In this document: positions 3,484 to 3,917 of the stretch, piece after piece
How positions within the stretch are numbered: the first letter of the stretch is position 1
Layout: each line of letters opens with the position of its first letter
Origin: a virus
Lineage: Duplodnaviria > Heunggongvirae > Uroviricota > Caudoviricetes
Strand: one strand, 5' to 3'
IMG/VR virus record: IMGVR_UViG_2529292736_000009
Span: 1-11,200 of that record
Length of the DNA: 11,200 nt
Program-made: the position numbers and the translations under genes
The notes under the pieces: model-generated
Told to the model about the DNA's origin: nothing
The model's database searches: none
The model's input: the letters and a program-made list of their open reading frames with translations, nothing else

Positions 3484-3709
3484 TGATCGTTTTAATGCCC
3501 TGAAACAGGAATTTGATGGCGCACCGGAACACGAAGCAGACGCATTGTTGGGCGTTGCTGACATGATAAAAGCCGCATTTTTTCTTATCAATACCAGTGG
3601 CTACAGGTCAGAGGGTGCGGAGATTCTCAATATTGCGTCGGACTATGCGGAATATGTTGCAGAGGCGCGTTACAGAAGAAAATTCCCGGAGGATGTAAGC
3701 CATGGATAA
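3476..3709 (+). CDS. Hypothetical protein (77 aa)
   Basis: ATG at 3476 overlaps the upstream stop (ATGCGTGA); a G8 tract (3466-3473) sits where the SD should be. ORF track start 3449 is an in-frame upstream alternative. Confidence 0.45.
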   Translation: MRDDRFNALKQEFDGAPEHEADALLGVADMIKAAFFLINTSGYRSEGAEILNIASDYAEYVAEARYRRKFPEDVSHG

Positions 3710-3860
3710 AATCCCTTTCGATGTTCTTATTCATTCTGAGAATGCATTAAACCGGGCACTGGAAATGAAAGCGGTATTAATTAAATTAACCGAAGTTCAT
3801 GCCGAACAGGGGGGGGGATTTATTTTCTGCTTTCAGCACTCTGTTAACCCCGGTTATTGA
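3702..3860 (+). CDS. Small ORF (52 aa) interrupted relative to a longer 69-aa reading by a G9 homopolymer (3809-3817)
   Basis: GGAGG SD at 3687-3691, ATG at 3702 overlapping the previous stop. Below the size cut-off of the ORF track. One G fewer would extend the frame to TAA at 3910-3912, ending 5 nt before the next gene's ATG. Confidence 0.35.
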   Translation: MDKIPFDVLIHSENALNRALEMKAVLIKLTEVHAEQGGGFIFCFQHSVNPGY

Positions 3861-3917
3861 TGAATTAAACGCGGTTATGGAAATACACGACAAGACCCGC
3901 GCAGAGGAATAAAAACC

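Follow-up and report, generated by a model that had tools for sequence, protein, structure and literature searches.

Two long poly-G runs of variable length in the early operon of an Escherichia coli phage satellite

The window, by which we mean the whole 11,200-nucleotide stretch of DNA that was analyzed, has the gene content of a phage satellite (Table 1). An integrase and an AlpA-family regulator are followed by an overlapping chain of small genes, in the order Icd-like, gene A, gene B, gene C and DUF4222, and these lead into a replication gene, a small open reading frame, SSB and a set of packaging genes. The integrase, AlpA, a replication gene of its own and the small terminase are the features of a Gram-negative PICI, an element of about 10-15 kb that lacks genes for lysis and tails, and there are no tail or lysis genes in the window. 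The phage-satellite setting proposed in the original prediction is thus supported by the presence of an integrase, AlpA, primase/helicase, capsid and small terminase, and the gene content supports assignment of the window to a PICI-type satellite of E. coli, with gene C placed in a putative early/replication operon. The element does not fit the definition of a capsid-forming PICI (cf-PICI; bioRxiv 10.1101/2025.02.11.637232), having the capsid, decoration protein and small terminase only; no portal, protease or large terminase was found in the satellite. In the close relative L001/L170 the small terminase is the last gene of the element, which borders on a P2-like tail module; in strain PapRG-04-4 the satellite directly adjoins a P2-like tail gene cluster.

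Table 1. Features of the window, with the gene, tract and codon coordinates used in the text.
Feature	Position	Strand	Remarks
Tyrosine integrase	1-1230	+	
AlpA-family regulator	1429-1785	+	
396-aa protein	1838-3028		downstream of alpA
Icd-like small protein	3048-3254	+	first of the overlapping gene chain
Gene A	3244-3483	+	79 aa in the G8 state of the window; N-terminal part of phrog_2512 protein
Tract 1	3466-3473	+	G8 homopolymer at the gene A/B junction, followed by TT and the gene B ATG; from the sequence and relatives
Gene B	3476-3709	+	77 aa; C-terminal part of phrog_2512 protein; stop overlaps gene C start
Shine-Dalgarno of gene C	3688-3692	+	GGAGG, 9 nt before the ATG; read from the sequence
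Gene C as read, G9 state	3702-3860	+	52-aa truncated product; ATG 3702, stop TGA 3858-3860
Tract 2	3809-3817	+	G9 homopolymer inside gene C; read from the sequence, and length polymorphism
C-terminal half of gene C, true frame	3817-3912	+	DLFSAFSTLLTPVIDELNAVMEIHDKTRAEE; stop TAA 3910-3912
Stop of third frame	3845-3847	+	TAA; G4, G7, G10 and G13 alleles, 46-49-aa products ending ...LLSALC
DUF4222 gene	3918-4217	+	
Replication gene, RepA-type helicase (AAA_25)	4214-5629	+	start overlaps DUF4222 stop
SSB	6131-6553		after the helicase gene and a small ORF
Packaging genes	6685-9302	+	same order in L001 and L170
Major capsid, lambda gpE-like	6685-7812	+	
Head decoration, gpD-like	7822-8163	+	
Excisionase-like protein	8175-8558	+	
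Small terminase	8751-9302	+	

Other parts of the element are less readily assigned. The 396-aa protein has no match in Pfam, NCBIfam or PADLOC, and only its residues ~50-85 show a weak resemblance to an anti-repressor (Ant; PHROGs E ~5e-5); different genes occupy its position in relatives, for example those of BRO-N proteins. The block of genes A, B, C and DUF4222 (loci L010-L018 and L171-L180) precedes three unrelated replication proteins in different satellites, i.e. the RepA-type AAA_25 helicase, a D5_N/DUF5906/Pox_D5 primase or a DUF927 protein; the replication module that follows DUF4222 is being exchanged. A search of the plus strand between 3000 and 4400 for promoters and terminators gave none.

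Gene C is split by tract 2. Translation of the G9 sequence gives the N-terminal helix and then, after the GGG, 14 out-of-frame residues (FIFCFQHSVNPGY). The two halves of the gene are joined only with a run of 5, 8 or 11 G. Removal of one G in silico (G8) gives the 69-aa product MDKIPFDVLIHSENALNRALEMKAVLIKLTEVHAEQGGDLFSAFSTLLTPVIDELNAVMEIHDKTRAEE, ending at the TAA that lies 5 nt before the ATG of the DUF4222 gene. This is as the original prediction had it, and its coordinates for the small split gene were all found to be correct when the sequence was read again. Addition of one G (G10) gives a 48-aa product ending at the stop codon of the third frame. The products are therefore set by the length of the run, with G5, G8 and G11 giving 68, 69 and 70 aa, G6 and G9 giving 51 and 52 aa, and G4, G7, G10 and G13 giving 46-49 aa. 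Three overlapping matches to GGGGGGGG are present in the window, located in two tracts, compared with 0.34 expected from 200 shuffles, of which eight reach three matches; the tract thus exceeds chance expectation.

Could the second half of gene C be translated separately? An ATG at 3799 is in frame with the C-terminal helix only at G9 (and also at G6 or G12), creating a 37-aa open reading frame (MPNRGGGDLFS..., 3799-3912). This has no Shine-Dalgarno sequence, and is therefore probably not expressed. There is no in-frame start after the run, and restart downstream of tract 2 was rejected.

The homologs of gene C show that the 69-aa frame is the true gene, and that the downstream frame encodes the C-terminal half of a conserved small protein, so that the reasoning on frames in the original prediction was right. 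A search with the repaired 69-aa product gave 66 proteins. The full-length homologs, which have both halves, are 68, 69 or 70 aa in length, and their sole difference is QGD, QGGD or QGGGD, corresponding to G5, G8 and G11. The truncated homologs are 46-52 aa in length, with tails that are exactly those of the two other frames (...GGGFIFCFQHSVNPGY and ...GG(G)IYFLLSALC); in the protein database these correspond to G4, G6, G7, G9, G10 and G13. A tract-free family of 75 aa, with ~60% identity and present in hundreds of contigs, conserves residues on either side of the tract position. In the family as a whole ten positions downstream of the tract are invariant: A43, T46, L47, L48, P50, V51, I52, E54, L55 and H62.

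The AlphaFold2 model of gene C, calculated with the family alignment, has a pLDDT of 86.6 and comprises a helix at 6-32, a loop and a second helix at 38-68. In the model tract 2 encodes a Gly-Gly sequence in the loop between the helices, and this accounts for the tolerance of in-frame changes of length. The out-of-frame alleles are predicted to lack the entire second helix; this is the conserved one, and the shortened products are therefore presumably inactive. Neither gene C nor A-B has a match in Pfam, NCBIfam or PADLOC, and a Foldseek search of the gene C model against the PDB returned nothing at E < 1, the only similarities being to generic helical hairpins such as Rop. In PHROGs both gene C and A-B match solely families of unknown function. 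The allele with the tract is present in 15-19 of 5426 complete E. coli genomes, most satellites having tract-free alleles such as the 75-aa family, and a search with gene C of one genome per species gave no match.

How variable is tract 2 in nature? The original prediction had proposed a comparison of G8 and G9 in related islands, and this reveals extensive length polymorphism. The DNA of relatives was taken from complete E. coli genomes, exact-protein lookups, IMG/VR and metagenomes, and provided 42 independent loci with this allele of gene C. Their tracts range from 5 to 11 G (G5 in 4, G6 in 2, G7 in 11, G8 in 8, G9 in 12, G10 in 3 and G11 in 2), and the protein data extend this to 13 G. The gene is in frame in 16 of the 42 loci (38%) and out of frame in 26 (p = 0.52 compared with a random one third). 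In each of the 26-28 out-of-frame alleles both the N- and C-terminal halves are otherwise intact, with no second lesion.

The tract can differ in length where the flanking DNA is identical. Loci L110 and L111 have no mismatch over 3732 bp and a single gap, G10 versus G9; L022 and L158 have none over 3197 bp, and again a single gap, G8 versus G7. Between the window and L008 there are three mismatches over 1468 bp, and both tracts differ in length. A run of 7-11 G is kept in two lineages of gene C whose N-terminal halves are only 77% identical, and it is rarely interrupted, the exceptions being G7T in L003 and CTGGGGG in L103 and L104. A short in-frame G5 allele is also common and stable, and its protein P0005 is indexed in 70 blocks of the collection. 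The exact 52-aa product of the window is indexed in 167 blocks, which include NCBI assemblies and ENA isolate and metagenome assemblies, and it occurs beside three types of replicase and with all states of tract 1. The G9 run is reproduced in GCA_000250375.2, where an exact-protein lookup locates the window on contig AIHI01000010.1, in GCA_000250395.2, and in independent Logan assemblies of SRR096911 and SRR096912.

Within the tract-bearing lineage the downstream half of gene C has very low diversity (pS 0.014, pN 0.027, from a handful of changes), and at this diversity there is no measurable purifying selection on it, pN/pS not being less than 1. This half is nearly identical in all loci, unlike the N-terminal half, whose alleles are diverged between the lineages (pS 0.155), so that the gene is mosaic around the tract. 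A similar pattern is seen upstream, where conservation is much stronger in the ~50 nt to each side of tract 1, and at the 3′ end of gene B, than in the interiors of the genes. Together these patterns suggest recombination at conserved gene junctions.

There is a second long G run in the window that had been overlooked at the first reading, a G8 run located 343 bp upstream of tract 2, where genes A and B meet. Amongst 137 independent loci this tract 1 is G6 in 2, G7 in 27, G8 in 50, G9 in 35, G10 in 7, G11 in 3 and G12 in 1, with a few that are interrupted. With G7 or G10 genes A and B are fused into one protein of 154 or 155 aa that matches phrog_2512 from end to end (1-153 of 154). The other lengths leave them split, with a gene A product of 79 or 80 aa for G8 or G11, and of 85-87 aa for G6, G9 or G12 (86 aa for G9); the separate A and B halves correspond to phrog_5146 and phrog_24341. 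The window is in the split state. Fused alleles make up 29% of loci (p = 0.32 compared with one third). The AlphaFold2 model of the A-B fusion is poor, with a pLDDT of 55.5.

Tract 1 is kept down to 56% amino acid identity of gene B, whose ATG is retained everywhere; where another gene lies upstream, it too has a run of G6 or G7 at its end, before the same ATG. It is therefore probable that tract 1 doubles as the Shine-Dalgarno sequence or ribosome-binding site of gene B. A stable G4 allele of tract 1 (GAATATGGGGTTATG) has the fused frame. In five such satellites (L081, L082, L084, L131 and L132, ~0.3-2 kb upstream of the GAATATGGGGTTATG junction) the A-B frame is open upstream for up to 683 codons, across both the Icd-like gene and a stretch that is inserted there. 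Either an insertion or a gene on the opposite strand, of which this frame would be the shadow, may be responsible.

Three loci (L181, L182 and L183) that have no mismatch over 3207 bp have G6, G7 and G9 at tract 1, whereas tract 2, a short G5 run in all three, does not vary; this is the dependence on length that slippage predicts. No change in tract 1 was found among clonal complete genomes (2020S05-013 and four derivatives, ETEC1732 and ETEC1734, Z1323CEC0007 and Z1323CEC0008), where it is G7 or G8. Across species the pattern of tract 1 was found in Shigella flexneri only, together with one chance match in an unrelated metagenome-assembled genome.

Long G runs are not a general feature of these elements. 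In 732 kb of non-redundant DNA from related satellites there are 123 runs of at least eight G or C, of which 96 are at tract 1 and 27 at tract 2, with none elsewhere. Thus long G runs are otherwise avoided in these satellites. In near-identical pairs (at least 99.5% identity) G runs of at least seven differ in 34%, compared with indels in 5.9% of A/T runs of at least seven, so that G runs are about six times more variable, although this is also compatible with platform error. The same comparison at a threshold of at least 95% identity is confounded by alignment gaps in diverged stretches. At that threshold two other homopolymers in the window, both intergenic, also vary: T7 (1231-1237), which lies after the integrase stop and upstream of alpA, differs in length in 8 of 9 alignments, and A8 (5814-5821) in 3 of 12.

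The explanation that we consider most probable is that two hypermutable G runs change in length by slippage during replication, the window being out of frame at both. Slipped-strand mispairing in DNA replication would add or remove G nucleotides, so that alleles with G5, G8 or G11 would make full-length gene C protein differing solely in the length of the loop, and the window would carry a natural out-of-frame (OFF) allele. Tract 1 would act likewise, giving A and B as one fused 154-aa protein or as two separate products. Three of the properties expected of a contingency locus are found. The homopolymers are of a length that slips, i.e. about 7 or more (G9 in gene C and G8 at the A/B junction), their length shifts gene C between intact and truncated, and A-B between fused and split, and it differs where the flanks are identical over 3.2-3.7 kb. 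From the comparison of loci we infer the slippage origin; the changes may also be reversible at a useful rate and of importance to the satellite. The original prediction had left three options: an error of sequencing or assembly, an inactivating frameshift or a slipped-strand switch. The slippage-prone tract stands, while a one-off error is disfavored by the recurrence of the 52-aa G9 product in many backgrounds; the other two options are here the same mutational process. Mismatch repair is intact in E. coli, and the species is not known for phase variation based on such tracts.

Slippage may have no benefit for the element. A serious rival interpretation, which invokes the same mutational mechanism and which we regard as rather unlikely, is that gene C is dispensable, that the G run is a mere mutational hot spot, and that the out-of-frame alleles are ordinary pseudogenes undergoing neutral decay. 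The occupancy of the frames, 38% in frame for gene C and 29% fused for A-B, is random at both tracts, and so gives no indication that selection has favored the ON state. This is as expected of decay, as are a pN/pS not below 1 in the C-terminal half (on few changes), the unchanged G7 or G8 at tract 1 in the clonal series of genomes, the rarity of the tract-bearing allele, the tract-free alleles of most satellites and the common, stable G5 allele. Yet none of the 26-28 out-of-frame alleles has any other lesion. Moreover the run has been held at 7-11 G, rarely interrupted, in two diverged lineages, G runs of such length occur at no other place in 732 kb, and the second tract in a neighboring gene is conserved throughout the family. 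At about the same low level of probability, and tentatively, we would place the proposal that these are two site-specific poly-G contingency loci, maintained in evolution in consecutive genes of the early operon, by which a burst of replication would yield progeny mixed for gene C on or off and for A-B fused or split, as bet-hedging against variable helper phages or hosts.

It is very improbable that the strain is truly G8, with an intact gene C, and that G9 is a miscall of the homopolymer. Homopolymers nine nucleotides long are error-prone on several platforms, and some otherwise identical assemblies differ by one G; some of these single-G differences may indeed be sequencing errors. However, two NCBI assemblies and the independent Logan assemblies all show the G9 run, the identical 52-aa product recurs in so many independent assemblies that G9 is no one-off error, and the range of 5-13 G in relatives far exceeds miscalls of plus or minus one. 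We give still less credence to recoding, in which the G9 mRNA would yield the full-length 69 aa by +1 ribosomal slippage of tRNA-Gly or by transcriptional slippage. On a run of G, tRNA-Gly is able to pair again whatever the register, and in prfB and dnaX frameshifting is stimulated by G-rich sequences that resemble a Shine-Dalgarno. Against this, all three frames are occupied near-randomly at both tracts, so that no direction of a programmed shift is conserved, and the known transcriptional slippage sites of E. coli are A/T runs. Nor is there a stable RNA structure downstream: the folding energy of 3800-3920 is -22.9 kcal/mol, compared with a mean of -26.1 for shuffled sequences (z = +0.94), and an Rfam scan of the window gave no match. 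Thus neither the conserved frame relation nor the downstream stimulatory RNA structure expected of programmed recoding is found.

The classical examples of poly-G phase variation are those of Neisseria, Campylobacter and Bordetella (PMC3786947, PMC8355987, PMC1891110). The satellite tracts resemble the contingency loci of Neisseria, Campylobacter, Haemophilus and Bordetella, for example meningococcal hmbR/hpuAB (PMC3786947) and the homopolymeric tracts of B. pertussis (PMC1891110), in having a run of 7-11 G within an open reading frame, where one G turns the frame on or off, and in varying between isolates while the flanks are identical. Those bacterial loci are chromosomal genes of surface structures or virulence, whereas these lie in an E. 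coli phage satellite, and their states have been read by comparison of loci. In changing what follows it, with three C-termini for gene A and no off state, tract 1 is like the C-terminal switching of Helicobacter canadensis (PMC2823697); unlike the latter, one of its states fuses two separately translated open reading frames, and the tract is probably also the ribosome-binding site of gene B. Within the enterobacteria a poly-G frameshift is described for Klebsiella pneumoniae rmpA, where according to the preprint (bioRxiv 10.1101/2025.09.12.675794) the tract controls mucoidy; rmpA differs in being a regulator with a clear phenotype.

There are viral examples as well. Hypermutable polyG tracts are reported in the receptor-binding genes of Campylobacter Fletchervirus phages (Sorensen et al. 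2021, Cell Rep 35:109214, as cited in PMC12633550). These too are runs of 7-11 G in a mobile viral element, and the genotypes of Fletchervirus progeny are described as mixed; they affect receptor-binding proteins, the phage is virulent and a phenotype in host range has been demonstrated, whereas the tracts described here lie in small early-operon proteins of a satellite. The coliphages T2 (agt) and T4 (rIIA) are presented as having contingency loci in a recent preprint (Gomez, Barrick and Waters 2025, PMC12633550), again homopolymers in mobile elements that infect E. coli, with reversible frameshifts that its authors read as bet-hedging. Unlike those of the satellite, the T2 and T4 tracts are A runs copied by the phage's own polymerase, with measured mutant frequencies of about 7e-4 and a defence-evasion phenotype (PMC12633550). 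Satellites appear not to be treated in the text of this preprint, in which the word occurs once. As set out in that source, variation of poly-G in viruses has been described for Campylobacter phages, and of A runs for T2 and T4. Among the papers listed in our full-text searches none connects phage satellites or PICIs with homopolymer phase variation, and the term 'phage satellite' is absent from the listed results. The comparative evidence thus points to a locus of known kind, in a type of element that is new for it.

The variation also has consequences for annotation. The CDS of gene C is annotated inconsistently in L001, L002, L003 and L156-L167, with none in several of these, including L001; elsewhere in RefSeq annotations it is 47, 51, 52, 68 or 69 aa in length. 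For A and B the annotation gives sometimes a single hypothetical protein and sometimes two, and PHROGs has three separate families for them, one for the fused form and one for each of the split forms. Annotation pipelines thus split, truncate or drop the genes that bear tracts in an inconsistent manner. At the same time the natural on and off alleles provide a genetic handle on the role of these satellite proteins. Should switching of the tracts be fast enough to be of use, each induction would release genetically mixed particles, differing in two small early proteins, and satellites would join the Campylobacter phages, T2 and T4 among mobile elements with contingency loci. If the tentative bet-hedging reading were also true, no phase-variable system would have been described in a phage satellite before this one, which as a repeat-based system would be unusual for E. 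coli.
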